A DNA stretch of 64,000 nt, from the NCBI GenBank assembly GCA_024276825.1, contig JAJRWI010000044.1, forward strand, positions 25,823 through 89,822. Reading direction: 5' to 3'. Both the position numbers and the translations under genes were made by a program. The notes beneath the pieces were generated by a model that saw nothing but the letters and a program-made list of their open reading frames with translations, did no database searches and had not been told where the DNA came from. The stretch comes from an archaeon. Lineage in GTDB: Archaea; Asgardarchaeota; Thorarchaeia; Thorarchaeales; Thorarchaeaceae. The first letter of the stretch is position 1. Each line of letters opens with the position of its first letter. This document shows positions 25,743-35,606 of this stretch, in pieces.

Positions 25743-27080
25743 TTATAGGAATCTCAGGTGCTTGTAGGCTGGAGTCTTAGTATCAAAGGCAAACTGTACT
25801 TTCTGATACTCCTTTCTAAACTCTGCAACGTCTTCGGCCACCTTCACGACACTCTCACCTTTCATGACGACTCTATGCATGAACTCTGCAATCGCATCCA
25901 TCTCTGGCTCCCTCATCCCAAGTCGAGTCATTTCACTGGTACCAAGTCTAATGCCACCGGGAGTCTTATAATCACGTCCCATCTTTTTATCCCATGGAAG
26001 CAGATTTCTATTGATGATGATATTGGCTCTCTCAAGTTGTTCTTCCACAATACGACCGTTCTTCATCGGAGTTTCTGAGATGTCCACAAGAACAACATGC
26101 GACTCTGTAAAGCCCTTGTGTTCGGCAATCACCTTCCAACCGCGATCATAGAGGGCCTGAGCGAGTGCTTTGGCATTTTTGATGATTTGTTCTGAGTAAT
26201 CCTTTCCAAATTCCATCATCTCCGCAAGGACCACAGCAAGACCTGCAACATTATGCAAGTGATGATTACTCATCATACCGGGAAATGCAGCCCGCTTCAC
26301 TGCCTCTGAAAGTTCCTCCCTTGCAAGGACAATACCGTGTTGTGGACCTGGCATAGTCTTATGAGTGGAGGCAGTCATGATGTCTGCTCCCTCCCTAAGT
26401 GGGTCTTGAAATCTACCTGCGGCGATAAGTCCCGAAACATGTGCTGAATCATATCCAATGCGCATTCCATACTCATCTGCGATATCCCTGAACTCTTTCA
26501 CAGGATGCGGGAACGGGAATACACTGCCACCAAATAGCAGGAGCTTTATCTCTTGCCCCCCTTCTTGCAGTTTTCTTATCTCTTTGATACTAGCATCTAC
26601 ATCGATATTGAATTCCTTCTCGTCAAAGACCCAATTGCGCACCTTGTGCCCCCTGACTGCACCTGCGGTTCCACCAAGATTTCTTCGTGCATGAGAAATA
26701 TGACCACCATGAGCAATTGATAATGCCATCATCCTATCGCCAGGGGCCATTGTTGCAGTGTACATCATCAGGTTGGCAACAACTCCCGAAACTGGCCTTA
26801 CATCTGCGAACTCGGCGTTATAGAGCTTCTTAGCAAGGTCAATACAAATCAGTTCTACTTCATCGATATACTTGCACCCGGCATATACTCTCTCACCAGG
26901 CCAGCCCTCTGCATAGCGGTCTCTGAAATCACATACTATTGCTGATCTCACCGCGGGTGAAGAAATGTTCTCGGATGCAATGAGATTAATCGTCTTACTC
27001 ATCCAATTATCGTGCTTTTCAATAAGATCAAATACTGTGTCATACAACTTCTTGTGTTCACTCAAATGATGACCTCCCAA
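25743..27080 (-). CDS. glyA: Serine hydroxymethyltransferase
   Basis: LIASEN, YAEG, GGHISH, YDSAHV, STHKT (PLP Lys), GIRLGT. Confidence 0.97.
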   Translation of the reverse strand: MGGHHLSEHKKLYDTVFDLIEKHDNWMSKTINLIASENISSPAVRSAIVCDFRDRYAEGWPGERVYAGCKYIDEVELICIDLAKKLYNAEFADVRPVSGVVANLMMYTATMAPGDRMMALSIAHGGHISHARRNLGGTAGAVRGHKVRNWVFDEKEFNIDVDASIKEIRKLQEGGQEIKLLLFGGSVFPFPHPVKEFRDIADEYGMRIGYDSAHVSGLIAAGRFQDPLREGADIMTASTHKTMPGPQHGIVLAREELSEAVKRAAFPGMMSNHHLHNVAGLAVVLAEMMEFGKDYSEQIIKNAKALAQALYDRGWKVIAEHKGFTESHVVLVDISETPMKNGRIVEEQLERANIIINRNLLPWDKKMGRDYKTPGGIRLGTSEMTRLGMREPEMDAIAEFMHRVVMKGESVVKVAEDVAEFRKEYQKVQFAFDTKTPAYKHLRFL

Positions 27081-27178
27081 GCCATGAGGATGTGTGCGCT
27101 GAGGTCCAACTTCGTTATATCACTTGCGACAGGGCTGCAATCAGTCTGAATGTGGTTTAATACACTAACAGAAGAAGA

Positions 27179-27314
27179 TGGCGGGCCAGGTGGGACTCGA
27201 ATTCGTGTTGTGTTTCGTAGTGAAACCCAATCCCACGACCAACAAGTCTCTCCAATCCCAGCAAAATACTGGAGATTTAAGAGCCTGTCGCTATACCGAC
27301 TTAGCCACTGGCCC
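27179..27314 (-). tRNA. tRNA-Lys(CTT) with two introns (37/38: 27248-27277; 53/54: 27202-27231), CCA encoded
   Basis: Minus strand: GGGCCAG acceptor, D arm, ACAGG-CTCTTA^A-CTTGT, GTGGG^TTCGAGT-CCCAC, CTGGCCC-G-CCA after removing two 30-nt inserts that each fold as a BHB-like motif. Confidence 0.9.
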
Positions 27315-27458
27315 ACGATTCAATGTCTTTTCAGATTGAGTTTATAGATGTTGCGATACTGCATCCACCTCTTACCACCAAGAATAAGATTAGGAGGCTA
27401 TTTATGGTGCGATGATATATATCTCTAGACCATTGGAAGCAGTATAAGAGGTGTTCTG

Positions 27459-29093
27459 ATGCTGAAGATGATTAGCAATAACAAGTTCTTTGTAGTCGCA
27501 CTCGTTGCGACTATAGTCACTGCTGGAATGTCATTTGGAAACCTTCCCACGCCTTCCCCTCCTCAAGGCGTTCAGGTGATTAATGGAGTCACTTTCAACT
27601 TTTCTGATTACCCGTTTGTCCCTCATGAGTCATTGGCCCTGTTTAACTATCTGGACACGATAGTCAGTAGCAAATATCAAGGGTATGGCGAATGGGAGGG
27701 GTGGTATGCAGAGAACTATCATGGCCTTCATCATTATGTGCTGGCCTTCATGGACTATACTGTCAGTGCGATGTTTGAAGCTACTTCTGGATATCGTACT
27801 GATTACTATCGTGAGTTTGCATATGATCTGATAAAACGAATGAACACTACGGAGGAGGAATGGGGTGAAAACAGCATCGAATACAAGGAGTGGACACATC
27901 CCGAGTATAACTATGTTGATTACTATTATCCAAACAATGCATCCGATCCCAATGCAGTATACGTTGGGGGCTGGCGCGGTCCCGCAAATATCATGTGGAC
28001 CGGACATTATGCCTTGATGCAGGCATTATATGAGAGAAACTTCAACACAGGTGAGTTTATTGATGAACTGAGCTGGTTTATCAAGGACTGGAACCTCTCA
28101 CTGTTGACGGATCGCCATGGCAATTCAAAGGAGGGTGGATTATGGGGTGTTGGACTGATTCCATGTGAACCATACATTGTCTTTGTTCAATGCAATTCAA
28201 TCCCCATACTGACAACTGCCCTCTATGACAATATGATGGGTACAAACTATATGCCCATGTGGGACTATGGACTGAACTTCATAAATACAGTCATGCAAGA
28301 TCAATATGGTCTCTTTATGGATGGCTATTATGTGGATCGACCAACTTCAATCTACTATAACACTGAACGCCTGCCTGATACAATCCCTGGTCCTGCACAA
28401 TCACTGTATGCCAAAGATGGCAGGTGTAAAGTGTCATCTTACTGCAATGGTTGGGCTCTAGCCTTTCTTGAATACATTCAAGAGAACGAAACTATACATG
28501 ATTACCCAATTTTCTTGCAACATTTCAAGAAAGACATATCTCCCGACATGGCATATATCATTGACACTTACAATAATCCAACTGGATTCGGGACATTTGA
28601 TATACTTGGCACACTATTCACAATGCATCTTGCTAATCAGCGGGGCGATTATGCATTAAGAAACCGTCTTGTTAATTTTCTCTATAGCTCCTATAATAAA
28701 ATCTGGTCATCTGATGGGCGTAGAATGTATTATGACACGCTCTCCATCGAACCATTCATGCAACCAGTTCTTGCATTTGGCCACATATGGGCCACAAACC
28801 CCGTTACTATAAAAGACCTCGGTGATGCACGTCCAGCCGAATTCTGGAATTATCCATATATCAGCTCAGCTGATGATGATAATATTTGGGTCTATCAGGC
28901 CCAGTGGGATCCCAACAAGTCTGCATTCATTCTGAATATCCGCGTAGACCGGACTGCCACATTGACATTCAGCAATTTTGACGCAACTCCAACTGCATAT
29001 TTTGGAGGAACGGTCCTCACTCAATTGACTCAGGCTGCTGATGGATATACTCTGACACTAAGCCCGGGTCAGTATAACCTTGTGATAATGTGA
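27459..29093 (+). CDS. Secreted linalool dehydratase/isomerase (Ldi/LinD)-like protein
   Basis: NIMWTGH and CEPYIVFVQCNS match the LinD NIMYKGH and CEPDNYFVQCNS catalytic motifs with identical spacing. N-terminal signal/TM segment, several N-x-S/T sequons, GAGGTG SD. Confidence 0.85.
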   Translation: MLKMISNNKFFVVALVATIVTAGMSFGNLPTPSPPQGVQVINGVTFNFSDYPFVPHESLALFNYLDTIVSSKYQGYGEWEGWYAENYHGLHHYVLAFMDYTVSAMFEATSGYRTDYYREFAYDLIKRMNTTEEEWGENSIEYKEWTHPEYNYVDYYYPNNASDPNAVYVGGWRGPANIMWTGHYALMQALYERNFNTGEFIDELSWFIKDWNLSLLTDRHGNSKEGGLWGVGLIPCEPYIVFVQCNSIPILTTALYDNMMGTNYMPMWDYGLNFINTVMQDQYGLFMDGYYVDRPTSIYYNTERLPDTIPGPAQSLYAKDGRCKVSSYCNGWALAFLEYIQENETIHDYPIFLQHFKKDISPDMAYIIDTYNNPTGFGTFDILGTLFTMHLANQRGDYALRNRLVNFLYSSYNKIWSSDGRRMYYDTLSIEPFMQPVLAFGHIWATNPVTIKDLGDARPAEFWNYPYISSADDDNIWVYQAQWDPNKSAFILNIRVDRTATLTFSNFDATPTAYFGGTVLTQLTQAADGYTLTLSPGQYNLVIM

Positions 29094-29103
29094 GGTGGCA
29101 AAA

Positions 29104-29724
29104 ATGACCGAAGAAACAACGAAGTCAGAAGCGAGCGCTGAGAAAATGACTGTGCTTGAGCGTTGTAGAATGAATGACAGATCCGCATTAATGAAAACAA
29201 TGCTCTATGCATTAGTAGGCGCAGCTCTATACACCATTCTACAAATGATCCCTCACCCGTTCATTGTTTTGGGTCTGCTAAAATTCGGCCTACTTCCCTC
29301 ATTAACAATAATTGCACTTGTTGGTGCAATAAGGGGGCCCACAGCAGGCTTTCTGACTGGCTATCTAGGCGAGGTGACATATGGTCTGCTAATTCATAAT
29401 ACCATAGTGACAATGACTCTTGATGCTGCAGCATTTGGAGTTATTGGTCTGATAGTGGGATTGGCATCATATGACCTCAAGAATGGCAGGTCTTTGGTGA
29501 AGTTGTCAATACTGTCAGTCACAGGTCTGATATTTTCGACTCTGCTGATAGTAGTGATTGCAATGAAGGTCGAGGTATACGGAACATTAGCAATTCTCGG
29601 CTTTGAGATGTTGCCTCTCTTGACCCTCGGGATTCCAACACTCATGTTCTTGACACCTGTTCTCGCAAGAATCTGGGCCAAAATCGCCATTAGTTTGTCC
29701 CCAGCTGGTGAAAAAGCCCATTGA
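29104..29724 (+). CDS. ECF transporter substrate-binding (S) component
   Basis: About 200 aa, 5-6 TM; LPSLTIIALVGAIRGPTAGFLTGYLGE is the typical S-component GPxxGxxxG pattern. SD (GAGGTG) overlaps the ldi stop, so ATG 29104 is likely. Confidence 0.75.
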   Translation: MTEETTKSEASAEKMTVLERCRMNDRSALMKTMLYALVGAALYTILQMIPHPFIVLGLLKFGLLPSLTIIALVGAIRGPTAGFLTGYLGEVTYGLLIHNTIVTMTLDAAAFGVIGLIVGLASYDLKNGRSLVKLSILSVTGLIFSTLLIVVIAMKVEVYGTLAILGFEMLPLLTLGIPTLMFLTPVLARIWAKIAISLSPAGEKAH

Positions 29725-29825
29725 GAATTGAGAGAGTTATTCTCTCACTTCTCTTATTCTTTACACCTGACACAGATACCATGCACACCAAAACTACAAT
29801 GAACGATCCATCCTGCAAAGTGGGA

Positions 29826-29852
29826 CTTTTTCTTTTTCCCACTATATTTATA
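29826..29852 (+). promoter_or_regulatory. T-rich terminator-like tract followed by a TATA box upstream of the prenol kinase
   Basis: CTTTTTCTTTTT, then TATATTTATA; GGAGGT SD at about 29895 before ATG 29910. Confidence 0.5.
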
Positions 29853-29909
29853 GGAGAGGACATACTATCCCTTGTTCACTTTGATTTTTATCAAGGAGGT
29901 TCAAGACTC

Positions 29910-30713
29910 ATGTTTAATCCGTTAGGTCCTAGCCTTGAATTGGTCTGGGATTTTATTGCCATGATAATATCATTCGTGCTCGTGTTGCTTCTGGTGCAAA
30001 TAAACGCGGCAATTGAGAAGAGTGGGAAGCTTTCAACAATAGTGACTAGAAAAGTCATTCATACATTTGCAGCTCCTGTGTGGATGGTTTCATGGCTGTT
30101 GTTCTCAGGTGGCCTGTTCAGCAGATGGTTGGCCATGATAGTACCCTTACTCTTTGTCCTGCAATTCCTTGCCATAGGAACAGGAAGAGTGGAGAATGAA
30201 GACTTTGTGAGATCAATGTCCCGCAGTGGCGATCCAAAAGAATTACTTGGTGGCACACTTTACTATGCAACTATCATGGTGATTTTTGGCATCCTGTGGT
30301 TCTATGTGCCCCCTGGTGGCAATGTTGCACAAGCATCACCAATTGCGATTATTGCATTGGCATGCCTTGCAGGCGGTGATGGACTGGCCGACGTGATAGG
30401 CAGAAAATATGGTGGTGAGAGAAAATTTGGCATTGGTGGTTCTGAAAAGACAATTGCAGGGGCATTTGGAATGTTCATTGGAAGTCTTCTCTTTAGCATT
30501 GTCTTGCTATTAATATTCTCCCTTGTAGTTTCGTCATTTGTAGTGGCTGATATCTTCGTACCTCTTCTAATTATCAGTATTGTCGTCACAATCGTCGAAT
30601 TTCTAACACCCAAAGGCTATGATAACATCAGTATTCCAATTGCAGCGGTCATTACAATGATCCTCCTGCCCTACATCATTCCTACCTGGGCATTCCCCTT
30701 ACTTACACTCTAG
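29910..30713 (+). CDS. Phytol/farnesol/dolichol kinase family (CTP-dependent prenyl alcohol kinase)
   Basis: TRKVIH, VRSMSRSGDPKELLGGTLYY (VTE5/FOLK-like), GGDGLADVIGRKYG, KTIAG, DNISIP; multi-TM. True start is ATG 29910 after GGAGGT, not 29721. Confidence 0.88.
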   Translation: MFNPLGPSLELVWDFIAMIISFVLVLLLVQINAAIEKSGKLSTIVTRKVIHTFAAPVWMVSWLLFSGGLFSRWLAMIVPLLFVLQFLAIGTGRVENEDFVRSMSRSGDPKELLGGTLYYATIMVIFGILWFYVPPGGNVAQASPIAIIALACLAGGDGLADVIGRKYGGERKFGIGGSEKTIAGAFGMFIGSLLFSIVLLLIFSLVVSSFVVADIFVPLLIISIVVTIVEFLTPKGYDNISIPIAAVITMILLPYIIPTWAFPLLTL

Positions 30714-30746
30714 ATTAAATATGCAATTATAGATGGTGGCGGTCTC

Positions 30747-31565
30747 ATGAAGAACGAGCTCACAATAATCAAGCTTGGGGGTTCGCTGCTAACAGACAAG
30801 TCCCACCCTTACTCGGTTCATAGTAACATACTGGAAACGGTTTCTCACGAAATCAGAGATTGCATGGACAAAGGGCTGATACAATCGCTAATTATTGTTC
30901 ATGGTGTTGGCTCTTATGGCCATCCACCAGTGCTAGAACACAAGCTTCACAAGGGCTTCATGGGACCCCATCAGCTTTTGCCCCTCTCAAAGACTCAAGC
31001 AATAGTCGCTGAATTCAGGGCAATAATTGTCAGAGCATTACAGGATGCAGGTATACCTGTCTGTCTGATGTATCCTTCATCTATGATGGTTCAAGAAAGG
31101 ATGAGGCTCACACGCTATTTTCTTGAACCACTAGAGGGATTCCTATCATTAGGAATGGTGCCCCTGCTTGGTGGTGATATTCTGATAGATCCTGCTATGG
31201 GCTGGAGTGTCGGAAGTGGTGACCAGATTGCAGTGGTATTGGCCAAGGAACTTGGTGCAAGGCATCTATATTTTGCCTCTGATATTGATGGTGTTTTTAC
31301 TGCAGATCCAAAGCAGAACCCTGATGCAGAGCTCATTGACACAATTAATTTGAACAAGGCTGAAGAAATTTTGGAAAGATTGAGAACATCCAGCGGTGCT
31401 GATGCAAGTGGAGCAATGCATGGGAAGATAAATGCAATCCTGAGCCTGAAAGATGATATTCAAAATGGTCTTGATGTAGCAATTCTATCAATGATGACTT
31501 CTGGCAGGCTTACTGCCCTTCTGGAAGGCGGTGATACAAGAGCCACCTGTTTCTCGGTTGTTTGA
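30747..31565 (+). CDS. ipk: Isopentenyl phosphate kinase family protein
   Basis: KLGGSLLTDK, VHGVGSYGH (IPK-signature His), GGD, SGDQ, SDIDGV, DASGAMHGK. Confidence 0.88.
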   Translation: MKNELTIIKLGGSLLTDKSHPYSVHSNILETVSHEIRDCMDKGLIQSLIIVHGVGSYGHPPVLEHKLHKGFMGPHQLLPLSKTQAIVAEFRAIIVRALQDAGIPVCLMYPSSMMVQERMRLTRYFLEPLEGFLSLGMVPLLGGDILIDPAMGWSVGSGDQIAVVLAKELGARHLYFASDIDGVFTADPKQNPDAELIDTINLNKAEEILERLRTSSGADASGAMHGKINAILSLKDDIQNGLDVAILSMMTSGRLTALLEGGDTRATCFSVV

Positions 31566-31621
31566 AATCTTTTTTATTATGTAATATCAAAGGACGAGCT
31601 TGACTCTAGAGAGGTCCTGAC

Positions 31622-32698
31622 ATGAGCGAAGTCGAAACAAGGATGCCCCATAATATAATGAGAGACCGTGACGTTTTTGAAACACTCAATAATCATCTCT
31701 ATGTGACCCATGGCTTCATACAACCCCGGGACAAAATAATATGCTACCTCAAATATATACCCGATATGAATGGCAAGTGGATCTCCCCCCATGGACGCTA
31801 TAGGAGAGTATTCTCAGGGGGTCCCGAATCGGTAATCTCTGCCATGAAGATTTCACATCAATCCTATTTTCAATATGATAAACATCTTGGGGTTGAAATT
31901 TTGAAGGTCCCAGTCGATGACGTCCTGCGGTACTATCGCCCTGAGGACCGGATGAACGACATAATCAAGCACGGACCAAATGATGCTTTGGAAGAACGGG
32001 CCAAGACGATTGCAGAGATGCTCCATGACACTCTAAAAATACCCTTTGATAGGATAGGAGTGGCTGGAAGTATCTCATGGCATGGACATAATCCCTCTTT
32101 CTCGGATGTGAATATGAATGTGTATGGACAAGATGCCATTAACAAACTGCTGAATGGCAGAGATATGATTGTTGAAACATATCCAAGCGTTCGATATCGA
32201 ACCATCAAGGAATGGGCCGATGGGAGCATTGTTCGTCTGTGTATGCGAATTACTCACATCACCAAAGAGGACATGATCCCATTGTTTAAGAGACGTCGCG
32301 AAATATGCCTAAATGACATCTATACTGGAATCATGCCAGTCCTCCTACCCAACGAGGCTCCAATAAAGCATGGTCATGAATCATATCACGCCATTAACGA
32401 TGTTCCTCTCAAGGCTGAGCTCGAGATTTTAGACACTCAGTTTGGATCATTGACCCCCGCCATATATCAGACAATCTCTCAACCCCTTGATATTATTGAT
32501 GGGGACCGAATCACCAGACTGATGATCTATGATGGTGCCTTCAAAGACCTTCTCCTGCCTGGTGATACTGTAGAGGTGAATGGAACAATTCAAAGAGTGA
32601 TCACAAAAGACTCAAGTGAGCTTTATCAGATTATGATAGGAACAATGAGGGGTGTGGGCAGGGAGTTTCTCAGGCTTGTTGACCAATCATCAGGCTAA
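31622..32698 (+). CDS. Predicted archaeal nucleotidyltransferase (COG1665-like)
   Basis: RDRD...YLKYIP, IGVAGS...SDVNMNVYG, C-terminal OB-like PGDTVEVNG. Confidence 0.7.
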   Translation: MSEVETRMPHNIMRDRDVFETLNNHLYVTHGFIQPRDKIICYLKYIPDMNGKWISPHGRYRRVFSGGPESVISAMKISHQSYFQYDKHLGVEILKVPVDDVLRYYRPEDRMNDIIKHGPNDALEERAKTIAEMLHDTLKIPFDRIGVAGSISWHGHNPSFSDVNMNVYGQDAINKLLNGRDMIVETYPSVRYRTIKEWADGSIVRLCMRITHITKEDMIPLFKRRREICLNDIYTGIMPVLLPNEAPIKHGHESYHAINDVPLKAELEILDTQFGSLTPAIYQTISQPLDIIDGDRITRLMIYDGAFKDLLLPGDTVEVNGTIQRVITKDSSELYQIMIGTMRGVGREFLRLVDQSSG

Positions 32699-34242: not shown

Positions 34243-34920
34243 ATGCTGGATAAAGACCTTACTCGTGATAAGGAACGACTAATTAAACGTCTGAAAAACA
34301 TTGGTTATCTGACCAGCAAGTCAGTAGAAGATGCCCTAAGAAGAGTGCCCAGAGAGGACTTTCTTCCTGACTATCTGAGAAAAGATGCGTATCGCGATAC
34401 GCCCCTCCCTATTGGTCATGGGCAGACAATCTCTGCCCCTCACATGTGTGTGATTATGTGTGAGGGTCTCCAATTAGAGAAAGGGATGCGCGTTCTTGAA
34501 GTGGGTGCTGGATCAGGATACCATGCAGCCCTTTGTGCTGAGCTGGTCTATACTCCTCATGACCCGCAAGCAGGTCATGTATACACCATAGAGATTGTTA
34601 CGGAACTAATAGATTTCGCCCGTCGAAACCTTGAGAGAGCTGGCTATTCAGACAGGGTTACACTTATCCATGGAGATGGGGGCAAAGGCTTACCCGAGTA
34701 TGCCCCATTTGATCGCATTCTTGTTGCAGCTGCAGCACCCAAGATACCTCCCCCATTAATTGAACAACTTGCCAATGATGGAATCATGCTGATCCCTGTG
34801 GGATCACACGGGTTCTATCAAGAGCTCATGATGGTCATTAAGGACTCGGAAGGTCAGACAACATACAAACGATGGGGGGGTGTGGCATTTGTACCATTGA
34901 CTGGTGAATATGGCCATTAG
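34243..34920 (+). CDS. pcm: Protein-L-isoaspartate O-methyltransferase
   Basis: AY.DTPLPIGHGQTISAPH, LEVGAGSGY, APFDRI, QL...G.MLIPVG, FVPL. Confidence 0.96.
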   Translation: MLDKDLTRDKERLIKRLKNIGYLTSKSVEDALRRVPREDFLPDYLRKDAYRDTPLPIGHGQTISAPHMCVIMCEGLQLEKGMRVLEVGAGSGYHAALCAELVYTPHDPQAGHVYTIEIVTELIDFARRNLERAGYSDRVTLIHGDGGKGLPEYAPFDRILVAAAAPKIPPPLIEQLANDGIMLIPVGSHGFYQELMMVIKDSEGQTTYKRWGGVAFVPLTGEYGH

Positions 34921-35606
34921 TCTGCCCGATGAAGAGGTATGATTGTCAAGGTGACTGAACTGCCATCCTCCAGATTCAACTCCTCTCTGAGGTTTATGGG
35001 TGCGATTATCTCAATCACATTCTCACTATGATGAGTGCGCTGAGCAATTACCACTGCTCCATCGATAGACCCATTGATTTTCACCCGATAGCAAATCACA
35101 TCACCGAAGGTCCTGTCTTCCTGAGTGAATCCCTTTACTATTAATGGGGGTCCCCTACGCATTCTGTTAAGAGCTATCCGTGACCCCTCATTCTGTACAA
35201 GGATATTCAGAGTACCTGGATATGGTCTGAACCCCAAGGCTTTCTCAAAGTGTTCTGAATAGACCTCCACATAATATGCTCCCTCACCAAGCCCCCCCAT
35301 GACTCTACCTCTAATATCGAATTCATCCTCATATTGAGTGAATGCTGTTTCAAGCCCTTTTAGAACATCATCCAATACTTTTACTCCCTTTTTGGTGATC
35401 TTGACCAGCATCCCATTAGATGAATGAGTTCTCTCAACATATTCTTGGTTCACGCAAGTCATTATTCTGCGTGAAGCGGTCTGTTGACTGATATTCAGCA
35501 ACTTGCCAAGGTCACTTGTAGTAATTATTATCCTTCTATGAATTGCCCCCTGTTGTGCCAAGGCATAAAGAGTGAACCAGATGTCAGGCTCAGTCATAAG
35601 GCTCAT
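34917..35606 (-). CDS. ribK: CTP-dependent riboflavin kinase with N-terminal HTH (RbkR-type)
   Basis: SQQTASR HTH, GLGEGAYY, PYPGTLN, RTHH, EIIAP.NLR. Confidence 0.93.
   Translation of the reverse strand: MSLMTEPDIWFTLYALAQQGAIHRRIIITTSDLGKLLNISQQTASRRIMTCVNQEYVERTHSSNGMLVKITKKGVKVLDDVLKGLETAFTQYEDEFDIRGRVMGGLGEGAYYVEVYSEHFEKALGFRPYPGTLNILVQNEGSRIALNRMRRGPPLIVKGFTQEDRTFGDVICYRVKINGSIDGAVVIAQRTHHSENVIEIIAPINLREELNLEDGSSVTLTIIPLHRAD

Follow-up and report, generated by a model that had tools for sequence, protein, structure and literature searches.

We consider it fairly probable that the four genes described here are two independent conserved two-gene modules that abut by chance: an outer pair of a LinD-like protein and an S-component (module A), and a prenol salvage pair of a kinase and IPK2 (module B). 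They lie in a Thorarchaeota-like Asgard genome, within a stretch of 64,000 nucleotides that was analysed as a whole (the window). All four co-directional genes of the initial annotation were recovered by the ORF check on the + strand, and the features of the locus, in window positions, are as follows.

27459..29093, + strand, LinD-like gene (module A, gene 1), 544 aa
29092..29097, + strand, GAGGTG ribosome-binding site, seen in sequence
29104..29724, + strand, ECF-type S-component-like gene (module A, gene 2), about 206 aa
29725..29909, + strand, spacer of 185 nt between modules A and B, seen in sequence
29910..30713, + strand, polyprenol/phytol-kinase-like gene (module B, gene 1), 267 aa
30747..31565, + strand, IPK2 gene (module B, gene 2), 272 aa, 33 nt downstream of the kinase gene
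31570..31575, + strand, T-run TTTTTT, 5 nt past the IPK2 stop, seen in sequence

The GAGGTG overlaps the stop codon of the LinD-like gene (TGA 29091-29093), as initially described, and lies 6 nt ahead of ATG 29104. This stop-overlapping site suggests that the module A genes are translationally coupled. The GTG at 29095 was also considered as the S-component start, and ATG 29104 is likelier. The kinase ORF had been listed as 29721-30713, which starts too early; its homologues measure 262-295 aa, mostly 267-269. The short gap between the kinase and IPK2 genes and the T-tract that follows were both found as described, and the T-run is likely an archaeal transcription stop. The genes and their order therefore stand, but the four-gene layout is split between genes 2 and 3 by the 185-nt spacer. 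It carries a TATA-like tatatttata (29843-29852) and AGGAGG (29894-29899) upstream of the kinase ATG 29910, and is possibly module B's own promoter.

The first gene had been called a signal-peptide-bearing linalool dehydratase/isomerase homologue, and we agree. LinD converts linalool to geraniol, and in its own host it feeds catabolism (geraniol oxidation), not uptake. The LinD-like protein scored 50.3 bits against Pfam Ldi PF18566 (cut-off 26.1) and its sequence matched PDB LinD at E 4e-8. The top PDB structure matches of its model (pLDDT 88) were all LinD (Foldseek E 3e-13, TM 0.77 by target, 20% identity), and it has the (alpha/alpha)6-barrel of the LinD family in common with the Castellaniella defragrans LinD/Ldi (PDB 5g1u, 5hlr, 5i3t). 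A hydrophobic signal or anchor helix occupies about residues 9-26, so that both proteins appear to carry an N-terminal export signal. In contrast to LinD, the protein is archaeal and is always partnered by an S-component-like gene. It shares about 20% identity with LinD and exceeds it by 170 aa, having a linker rich in Pro and Thr as well as an additional C-terminal beta-sandwich (about residues 467-543). The key residues of LinD are H128, C170, C179, Y44 and D38 (PMC12455561). Across 27 relatives of the LinD-like protein, N177-I-M-W-T-x-H183, C236 and C245 are invariant, and they align with the NIM..GH motif and the Cys pair of LinD. As this Met/His/Cys-Cys set does not vary even among relatives at 34% identity, we argue that LinD-like catalysis is retained. 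D38 and Y44 have counterparts in the protein, but these are not conserved across its family.

The assignment of the second gene as an ECF S-component was essentially right. Its score against Pfam ECF-ribofla_trS PF07155 was 26.3 bits, just below the cut-off of 26.7, the NCBIfam riboflavin S-component gave 30.9 bits, and the closest Atlas clusters were all PF07155 S-components. PF07155 comprises S-components of many specificities. Five strong and one weaker hydrophobic segments were seen in the hydropathy profile, and basic residues are found at the N-terminus, in loops 2 and 4 and at the C-terminus. Size and six-helix hydropathy are like those of RibU-like PF07155 S-components, among them those of group II that share EcfAA'T. 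As in group II systems, the genome has a stand-alone EcfA-EcfA'-EcfT set (contig C24) with no S-component beside it.

The two module A genes were adjacent in 20/20 loci fetched, including families at 33-34% identity, and the pairing recurs in a more distant clade, with a PF07155-bearing neighbour. Elsewhere among the Asgard families, the pair adjoins transporter genes of the MacB or ABC-2 type rather than isoprenoid genes. Complex prediction for the two proteins gave a score of 0.70 (runs 0.68-0.71), while the best of three controls gave 0.00; the mark for this score is reached by 58/80 solved complexes against 2/110 mismatched pairs. Contacts agreed between runs by at least 91% and the partner pLDDT was at least 82. 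The predicted interface on the S-component (residues 50-63, 93-110 and 156-171) falls within loops placed outside by the positive-inside pattern, and the LinD-like protein is thus predicted to dock onto three outer loops. Known S-components, to our knowledge, bind substrate themselves, with no partner protein outside the cell, whereas here a conserved outer enzyme is modelled over the binding face. The literature searched gave no case of an ECF S-component paired with an extracellular enzyme.

Regarding module B, profile searches gave no Pfam and no NCBIfam match for the kinase. Its homologues are named dolichol, phytol or polyprenol kinase in the source annotations. The protein is an integral membrane protein with some 7-8 helices, and its GGDGxADxxGRKxGG..K motif is invariant. 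Its model (pLDDT 79) matched Atlas clusters of plant 'putative phytol kinase' (TM 0.83) and of the bacterial 'diacylglycerol/polyprenol kinase family' (TM 0.80/0.91), with a weak PDB match to CdsA 4q2e. The homologue names and the plant phytol kinase fold support the VTE5/FOLK-like assignment, and fold class and naming are shared with the CTP-dependent prenol kinases VTE5/FOLK of plants and with Plasmodium PfPolK.

Gene 4 does belong to the IPK family. IPK2 scored 176.9 bits against NCBIfam IPPK_Arch (cut-off 120), matched PDB IPKs at E 2e-34 and has the catalytic K9, GG, H59, D144, D148, D159 and K227 intact. The equivalog and the catalytic residues are common to the archaeal mevalonate IPKs (PDB 3k4o, 3ll9, 3lkk, 7lnt, 8u0k), but IPK2 differs from these in standing always behind a prenol-kinase-like gene. 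In the tree the kinase-linked IPKs form a single clade separate from the unlinked ones, and identity to the other IPK of the same genome is 27% only. Clade-specific invariant changes (G142, G/C156, Q84, R91 and P60-P61) lie beside the alkyl pocket. Four alkyl-pocket positions are known for IPK (PMC8500459), and as those of IPK2 (L80, T83, I/M145 and V155) are just mildly smaller than in ordinary IPKs, long-chain specificity is not indicated.

The idea of a kinase followed by an IPK as two consecutive steps was strongly backed by our survey, which took in some 300 Asgard genomes and 80 named loci. IPK2 lies directly 3' of the kinase in 78/80 named loci, the remaining two ending at contig ends, and some 70 of the Asgard genomes sampled show the adjacency as well. 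The two genes are mostly gained or lost jointly. Module B is present in the cultured Promethearchaeum syntrophicum MK-D1, in Hod- and Hermodarchaeota and in Chloroflexota bacteria. A UbiA-family, heme-O-synthase-like prenyltransferase gene is located upstream of it in MK-D1 and at 4 or 5 more Promethearchaeota (Lokiarchaeia-like) loci, and a tocopherol-cyclase-like gene neighbours it in one Chloroflexota locus, a further likeness to plant salvage. Both kinds of neighbours use or relate to prenyl diphosphates. No conserved prenol-kinase/IPK pair was found in the literature searched.

The proposed bypass of mevalonate is not needed. The core genes of the pathway, HMG-CoA reductase and mevalonate kinase, were found, together with a second IPK that scores better than IPK2, and module B would therefore be a salvage route rather than a bypass. 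A DUF92/VTE6-like gene lies elsewhere in the genome, unlinked to module B. The genome's second kinase paralogue, commoner among the sampled genomes than the module B kinase, could form a classical salvage pair with it.

The initial annotation joined all four genes into one route, in which a primary prenol would be produced outside the cell by the LinD-like enzyme, taken up through the S-component and given two phosphates by the kinase and IPK2. The chemistry fits, since LinD gives geraniol from linalool and prenol kinases use such alcohols. The genes are contiguous and co-directional here, and the modules lie within 4 kb of each other in about 19 of the 43 genomes of the family that carry the LinD-like gene, and at 18/80 kinase loci. 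The annotation had itself proposed co-occurrence in related genomes as the test, and the single pathway fails it, since the four are not found together as one set. Module B is spread more widely than module A and independently of it: within the family, it is present in 31/42 genomes that have the LinD-like gene and in 26/34 that lack it. Several genomes of 90-97% completeness have A without B (G005, G098, G103, G137, G143 and G161), and both same-genus genomes searched have B without A. In relatives, the modules are often separated by inserted genes for a Fur-like regulator and peroxiredoxin, and outside Thorarchaeaceae-like genomes no kinase-like gene lies anywhere near A. The whole block, with its flanking SHMT, MazG ... 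Trm5, DUF371, PCMT and riboflavin kinase genes, is conserved at family level as a synteny of unrelated genes. Given also the promoter-like spacer, and that besides adjacency we found nothing in favour of a hand-over from A to B in this organism, we regard the joint route as unlikely. Of the overall interpretation, the family assignments essentially hold and the kinase-IPK two-step is well backed.

Each module also has a rival reading. IPK2 may be the ordinary isopentenyl-phosphate kinase of the mevalonate pathway, being the sole IPK over the cut-off in the Chloroflexota G302 and G303 and the sole one found in the same-genus G236; it exceeds the equivalog cut-off with every catalytic residue. 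The kinase, many homologues of which JGI labels 'dolichol kinase', would then be a dolichol/polyprenol kinase for glycan-carrier supply, and the adjacency a matter of co-regulated isoprenoid metabolism, not of consecutive steps. However, module B is dispensable, with both genes absent in 12 sampled genomes, the two module-B-less genomes checked for IPK (G098 and G143) keep IPK1, and the role of housekeeping dolichol kinase could fall to the commoner paralogue. Linkage this tight and nearly universal, and a joint move into Chloroflexota, are what consecutive steps typically show, and clade-specific invariant changes lie next to the pocket of IPK2, so neither the housekeeping roles nor mere co-regulation seem probable to us. 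A somewhat doubtful reading detaches module A from terpenes: the S-component would have some other ligand, small and hydrophobic or vitamin-like (e.g. flavin-type), for which the LinD-like protein would serve as outer cap, binding protein or enzyme, or else the S-component would be a mere anchor for that protein. The riboflavin-type top family matches, a CTP-dependent riboflavin kinase gene 5 kb off, the low identity to LinD, the variable D38/Y44 equivalents and the transporter neighbours in other Asgard families speak for it. Yet the Met/His/Cys-Cys set is invariant, PF07155 is not tied to one specificity, and the riboflavin kinase gene is on the opposite strand within a housekeeping block and not close to the pair outside the Thorarchaeaceae-like family.

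What the analysis shows is the presence of the genes, their likeness in family and fold, the conserved residues, the patterns of adjacency and joint loss, and a docking prediction that withstands its controls. Under the preferred reading of two separate modules, we infer all the activities, the substrates and their chain length, and any flow that might lead from A to B. A LinD-family enzyme, exported or anchored outside the cell and keeping the acid-base set of LinD, would sit on the outer face of the S-component, touching its three outer loops. It may bind or convert a hydrophobic compound, probably an allylic alcohol or alkene, and hand it to the S-component, uptake being powered by the stand-alone EcfA-EcfA'-EcfT set. 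Separately, the CTP-type prenol-kinase-like membrane enzyme would turn an isoprenoid alcohol into a prenyl monophosphate and IPK2 would add the second phosphate, as a salvage or recycling route alongside an intact mevalonate pathway.

We know of no genes identified for the archaeal prenol phosphorylation of 1996. As it is cited in PMC9385802 and PMC10849223, that work demonstrated the process biochemically in an archaeon in two steps, as proposed for module B. Prenol salvage, for which few genes are known, combines a CTP-dependent prenol kinase with a polyprenyl-phosphate kinase (PMC10849223). The plant VTE5/FOLK and VTE6 (phytyl-phosphate kinase) follow the same logic from alcohol through monophosphate to diphosphate (PMC10849223), but VTE6 belongs to the DUF92 membrane family and the second kinase of module B to the soluble amino-acid-kinase/IPK family. 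Module B is thus a candidate two-step path from isoprenoid alcohols to their diphosphates.

The Asgard genome studied is 2.94 Mb in size and 98 % complete, its proteins have their nearest relatives in Thorarchaeota, and the window lies on its contig C36 (contigs of this genome are numbered C, sampled genomes G and fetched loci L). Four co-directional open reading frames occupy window positions 27459-31565 on the forward strand:

27459-29093, forward strand, gene 1, LinD-like protein (module A)
29104-29724, forward strand, gene 2, ECF S-component-like protein (module A)
29910-30713, forward strand, gene 3, polyprenol-kinase-like protein (module B)
30747-31565, forward strand, gene 4, IPK paralogue, here called IPK2 (module B)

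The junctions are as the initial annotation described them. The stop codon TGA of gene 1 overlaps the ribosome-binding site of gene 2, falling within GAGGTG 6 nt ahead of ATG 29104; genes 3 and 4 are separated by 33 nt, and a T-run lies downstream of gene 4. The spacer of 185 nt between genes 2 and 3, which that annotation left unweighed, contains tatatttata and a strong ribosome-binding site. As the homologues of gene 3 are 262-295 aa long (mostly 267-269 aa), its true start is ATG 29910 behind AGGAGG and not TTG 29721. ARAGORN, which multi-intron genes may escape, found no tRNA at window positions 26900-27500.

The LinD-like protein, the kinase and IPK2 each served as query against one and the same sample, 301 Asgard genomes, and 20 loci around LinD-like genes were fetched for inspection of the neighbours. 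The LinD-like gene is patchy, being present in 42 of the 76 genomes of the window's family and, at about 35 % identity, in 6 genomes of two other families, and it was not found in the two same-genus genomes searched. An S-component-like gene directly follows it in all 20 loci. Loci from the distant families keep this adjacency though the S-component identity is just 25-28 %, and in a still more distant clade the neighbour of the LinD-like gene is listed with PF07155. The kinase and IPK2 are adjacent, typically with a gap of 20-60 nt, in essentially all sampled genomes with either gene, which come from six families; they are jointly missing in 12 genomes (G005, G037, G046, G069, G098, G103, G137, G143, G161, G191, G224 and G248). 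Scanning named genome records with a kinase profile recovered IPK2 directly downstream of the kinase in 78 of 80 loci, and the remaining two end at contig ends. These 80 loci include the cultured Promethearchaeum syntrophicum MK-D1, Hod- and Hermodarchaeota, and six Chloroflexota bacteria (46-50 % identity), and in several of the Chloroflexota loci the kinase and IPK2 matches abut or overlap.

Regarding the association between the modules, the situation is different from that within them. In the window's family module B accompanies the LinD-like gene in 31 of its 42 genomes and occurs in 26 of the 34 genomes that do not have that gene. Among the LinD-like holders of this family, the modules lie at most 4 kb apart in about 19 genomes and on separate contigs in about 14, and module B is missing in about 9, some of which are 92-97 % complete. 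When the modules lie side by side, genes for a Fur-like regulator and a 1-Cys peroxiredoxin frequently separate them, and a GT4 glycosyltransferase gene frequently comes next. Across the region as a whole (SHMT, MazG, ... orf358, Trm5, DUF371, PCMT, riboflavin kinase), the synteny of unrelated genes is conserved at family level, and outside the window's family hundreds of kilobases separate the LinD-like pair from any kinase-like gene. Each pair occurs independently of the other. The initial annotation had read the four genes as one integrated terpene/prenol scavenging pathway and expected them to co-occur in related genomes; the genes and their shared forward orientation are confirmed, while the survey does not support a four-gene unit and shows two independent pairs instead. 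Overall, the integrated pathway finds only partial support. Two conserved pairs describe the locus best: LinD with an ECF S-component, and a VTE5-like kinase with an IPK replacing VTE6.

Several other features of the surroundings were recorded. The Fur/PerR-like regulator and 1-Cys peroxiredoxin genes are divergent between the modules in many Thorarchaeota relatives (e.g. L035:8363-9652 and L037:4308-5636) and absent from the window. An ORF of 358 aa at window positions 31622-32698 belongs to no Pfam family and adjoins Trm5/TYW2 in nearly all related loci at 37-45 % identity. A MarR-fused CTP-dependent riboflavin kinase is encoded at 34917-35606 on the reverse strand, 5 kb from the riboflavin-type S-component-like gene, and is the sole cue for a flavin ligand. 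We considered a riboflavin link from the S-component family name and this kinase 5 kb away, and judged it to be conserved housekeeping synteny.

The gene 1 product (544 aa) matches Pfam Ldi (PF18566) with 50.3 bits (cut-off 26.1), the best stretch spanning residues 231-290 only, and solved LinD sequences with an E-value of 4e-8; all 120 homologues listed carry PF18566. In the model (pLDDT 88, pTM 0.89), a helix near the N-terminus (residues 9-26) precedes an alpha-barrel, and a beta-sandwich (467-543) forms the C-terminal part. For the (alpha/alpha)6-barrel, the 27 best PDB chains are all LinD (E 3e-13 to 2e-11, TM 0.70-0.78 by target, 20 % identity), and other six-hairpin folds (GH127, YteR) match far more weakly, at E 1e-4 or weaker. 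All 27 relatives compared, with identities down to 36 %, keep N177-I-M-W-T-x-H183, C236, P238 and C245 unchanged. These conserved blocks correspond to the NIM..GH motif and Cys pair of LinD, with C236, C245, H183 and M179 aligned to the catalytic Cys170/Cys179, His128 and Met124 (numbering per PMC12455561; PDB entry titles call the same residues C171, C180, H129 and M125). Key residues of LinD are H128, C170, C179, Y44 and D38 (PMC12455561). Asp38 and Tyr44, contributed by the neighbouring protomer in LinD, align with D66 and Y73 of gene 1, but in a low-scoring stretch whose columns are not conserved in the family. LinD-like proteins are rare: a search of 1.84 billion representatives returned 176 clusters with an E-value of 0.001 or better. 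Distant LinD-like subfamilies (P0261) lack the S-component, which makes the pairing a trait of the Asgard-type clade. The literature searched contained no paper joining linalool dehydratase with Asgard.

The gene 2 product scores 26.3 bits with Pfam ECF-ribofla_trS (PF07155; cut-off 26.7) and 30.9 bits with the NCBIfam model (cut-off 99), and every one of its nearest ESM-Atlas clusters with an assigned family is a PF07155 S-component. Hydropathy shows five strong and one weaker hydrophobic segment, which fits a six-helix S-component with both termini inside; Lys/Arg clusters lie at the N-terminus, around residue 80, and at 129-136 and 192-207. The complex of the LinD-like protein with the S-component, predicted from purpose-built alignments, reached a score, which is a model confidence, of 0.70 (0.68-0.71 among runs), with 0.00 for the best of three controls; in the benchmark of this score, 58 of 80 solved complexes and 2 of 110 mismatched pairs attained the mark. 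Agreement among runs is at least 91 % of contacts, and the partner has a pLDDT of at least 82. We know of no solved LinD/S-component complex, and a pass by model memory is therefore unlikely. The modelling thus supports that the two proteins bind each other. On the S-component the predicted interface comprises residues 50-63, 93-110 and 156-171, the three loops put outside by hydropathy and the positive-inside rule. In known S-components the outer-loop face is the substrate-binding face. Such a predicted interface agrees with an exported LinD-like partner. To our knowledge, ECF transporters are defined by the absence of an extracellular binding protein and are thought to have no outer partners.

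As a candidate energising module we identified an EcfA-EcfA'-EcfT set on contig C24, made up of two ABC ATPase genes and one for CbiQ/EcfT. No S-component gene adjoins it, and a separate CbiMQO set is located on C81. In other Asgard families, MacB-type or ABC-2-type ABC transporter genes stand beside the LinD-like/S-component pair in 4 of 5 loci, possibly by chance. A MacB_PCD+FtsX permease with its ATPase, or an ABC-2 type, flanks the pair at L050:8798-11159, L053:3316-5647, L051:2419-5022 and L054:7872-10501. An ICMT/PEMT-like methyltransferase and a Zn-ADH are encoded nearby in L051, and a Rce1-like CAAX protease in L053. A locus of the distant clade has two genes for Zn-dependent alcohol dehydrogenases at a distance of 2-4 kb upstream from the pair (L142:1-2053). 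In the host of LinD, geraniol dehydrogenase acts after LinD in catabolism.

For gene 3, the membrane kinase of module B, Pfam (with CTP_transf_1, PF01148) and NCBIfam returned nothing up to an E-value of 1; a profile of 27 relatives searched against PDB sequences recovered no solved structure, only chance lipase matches, and Foldseek against PDB gave nothing at E 0.001 or better, with a weak likeness to CdsA 4q2e (probability 0.5, TM 0.36). Its homologues at 60-72 % identity are named dolichol, phytol or diacylglycerol/polyprenol kinase in their sources. The fold of the model (pLDDT 79) resembles Atlas clusters of a Streptophyta 'putative phytol kinase' (TM 0.83) and of the bacterial 'diacylglycerol/polyprenol kinase family' (TM 0.80/0.91), with predicted models on both sides of each comparison. 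The relatives share an invariant GGDGxADxxGRKxGG motif, which we take to resemble the nucleotide motif of the VTE5/FOLK/DOLK family, as a lead only for CTP-dependent prenol phosphorylation. The genome also encodes a kinase paralogue 28 % identical to gene 3 in a housekeeping context. This paralogue type is nearly universal in the genome sample and, as a candidate for the essential dolichol kinase, is preferable to gene 3. At G152:C15:40895-41672 module B appears to be decaying, with a kinase gene that is split and contains in-frame stops beside an intact IPK2.

Gene 4 scores 176.9 bits with the NCBIfam isopentenyl-phosphate-kinase equivalog NF040647 (cut-off 120), and K9, H59, D144, D148, D159 and K227 are invariant in 75 members of its clade. 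The check for a second ipk, proposed in the initial annotation, returned IPK1 on contig C28, which scores higher on the same model (203 bits) and is only 27 % identical to IPK2. In the phylogenetic tree all kinase-linked IPKs, from Asgard and Chloroflexota, form one clade with a long stem (support 90/99), and the unlinked IPKs that these genomes encode fall outside it; given a warning of long-branch joining, the deeper branching is uncertain. Invariant changes of the clade are P60-P61-V62, T83, Q84, R91, G142, V155, G/C156 and G226, and at the position of G142 other IPKs have His, Tyr or Phe. The four known alkyl-pocket positions correspond to Y70, V73, V130 and I140 of the T. acidophilum enzyme (PMC8500459). 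Pairwise HMMER alignments placed the pocket residues ambiguously by one residue, which was settled by an alignment of 83 rows: the IPK2 residues at R1-R4 are L80, T83, I/M145 and V155. These residues are somewhat smaller than usual but far from the Ala substitutions needed for C10-C15 phosphates, and the four positions show no clear sign of long-chain specificity. A kinase-linked IPK with two in-frame TGA codons in Caldilineaceae (G304:C25:41657-42439) is a sign of module B decay.

Whether module B serves prenol salvage or ordinary isoprenoid synthesis was judged from the genomes that hold it. The initial annotation proposed a bypass of mevalonate, but there is nothing to bypass, as HMG-CoA reductase, mevalonate kinase and IPK1 are all present; the mevalonate kinase gene (214.9 bits) is even on the same contig, at G000:C36:15138-15965 of the genome studied, about 10 kb before the window start and about 38 kb from the locus. 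IPK1 is retained in the two genomes without module B that were checked for it (G098 and G143), and MK-D1 and G065 hold both IPKs. The kinase-linked IPK is the only IPK found in Chloroflexota G302 and G303 and in the same-genus G236 (one contig, 86 % complete). Lack of the mevalonate pathway in the Chloroflexota holders of module B, which would have revealed a non-mevalonate role of IPK2, was considered and rejected, since five of five holders have HMG-CoA reductase and none has DXR. Because it is the sole IPK in some genomes and the Chloroflexota holders have the mevalonate route, IPK2 can, judging from gene content, probably also serve as an ordinary IPK.

Biochemical knowledge of the salvage of prenols (farnesol, geranylgeraniol, phytol) goes back decades and covers animals, plants and an archaeon. 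It needs a CTP-dependent prenol kinase and a polyprenyl-phosphate kinase, for which the only known genes are FOLK, VTE5, VTE6 and PfPolK; plants are the only organisms in which salvage genes, above all that for the second kinase, have been identified (PMC10849223). Sulfolobus acidocaldarius was shown to have both activities in 1996, in work cited by PMC9385802 and PMC10849223. In plants, VTE5 is paired with a DUF92/VTE6 membrane protein as second kinase, whereas the partner in module B is of the IPK family; the DUF92/VTE6-like gene of our genome is on another contig in a housekeeping context, unlinked to module B. We found no paper joining prenol kinase with isopentenyl phosphate kinase in the literature searched. 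On balance we favour, with some reservation, module B as an accessory two-step route from alcohol to diphosphate.

The neighbours of module B were inspected as well. A UbiA-family prenyltransferase gene is located upstream of kinase-IPK2 in MK-D1 (NZ_CP042905.2, L110:2076-2954, same strand, 40 nt upstream) and in four or five further Promethearchaeota (Lokiarchaeia-like) loci, including L125, L126, L129 and L137. The protein comes nearest to heme O synthase, for which it scores 196.7 bits, just short of the cut-off of 210.3. A homologue with 45 % identity in our genome lies on C48 beside the same unknown 496-aa gene, and shares this contig with HMG-CoA reductase. Directly upstream of the pair in a Promineifilaceae bacterium of the Chloroflexota is a gene resembling tocopherol cyclase (PF14249, 92 bits; L133:1750-2742), which recalls the plant vitamin E route that phytol kinase feeds. 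An MFS transporter follows kinase-IPK2 in 12-13 loci.

Taken jointly, the two pairs could be read as an S-component with a dedicated extracellular LinD-like hydratase/isomerase that processes an environmental isoprenoid and passes it directly to the transporter, and an IPK2 clade that is the missing polyprenyl-phosphate kinase beside a VTE5/FOLK-like kinase in Asgard archaea and Chloroflexota, the modules joining here in terpene-to-lipid-precursor scavenging; we regard this combination as rather unlikely. Both LinD with the ECF S-component and the VTE5-like kinase with IPK are worth bench tests. Module A would give archaeal LinD-like proteins their first physiological context, and the picture of ECF transporters would be extended by a conserved outer enzyme with a predicted docking site on an S-component. 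The prenol-kinase/IPK pair, conserved at the rate seen in the 80 loci, offers directly testable candidates for salvage, the cultured P. syntrophicum MK-D1 included. Both ideas bear on how sediment Asgard archaea may obtain or recycle their membrane isoprenoids.
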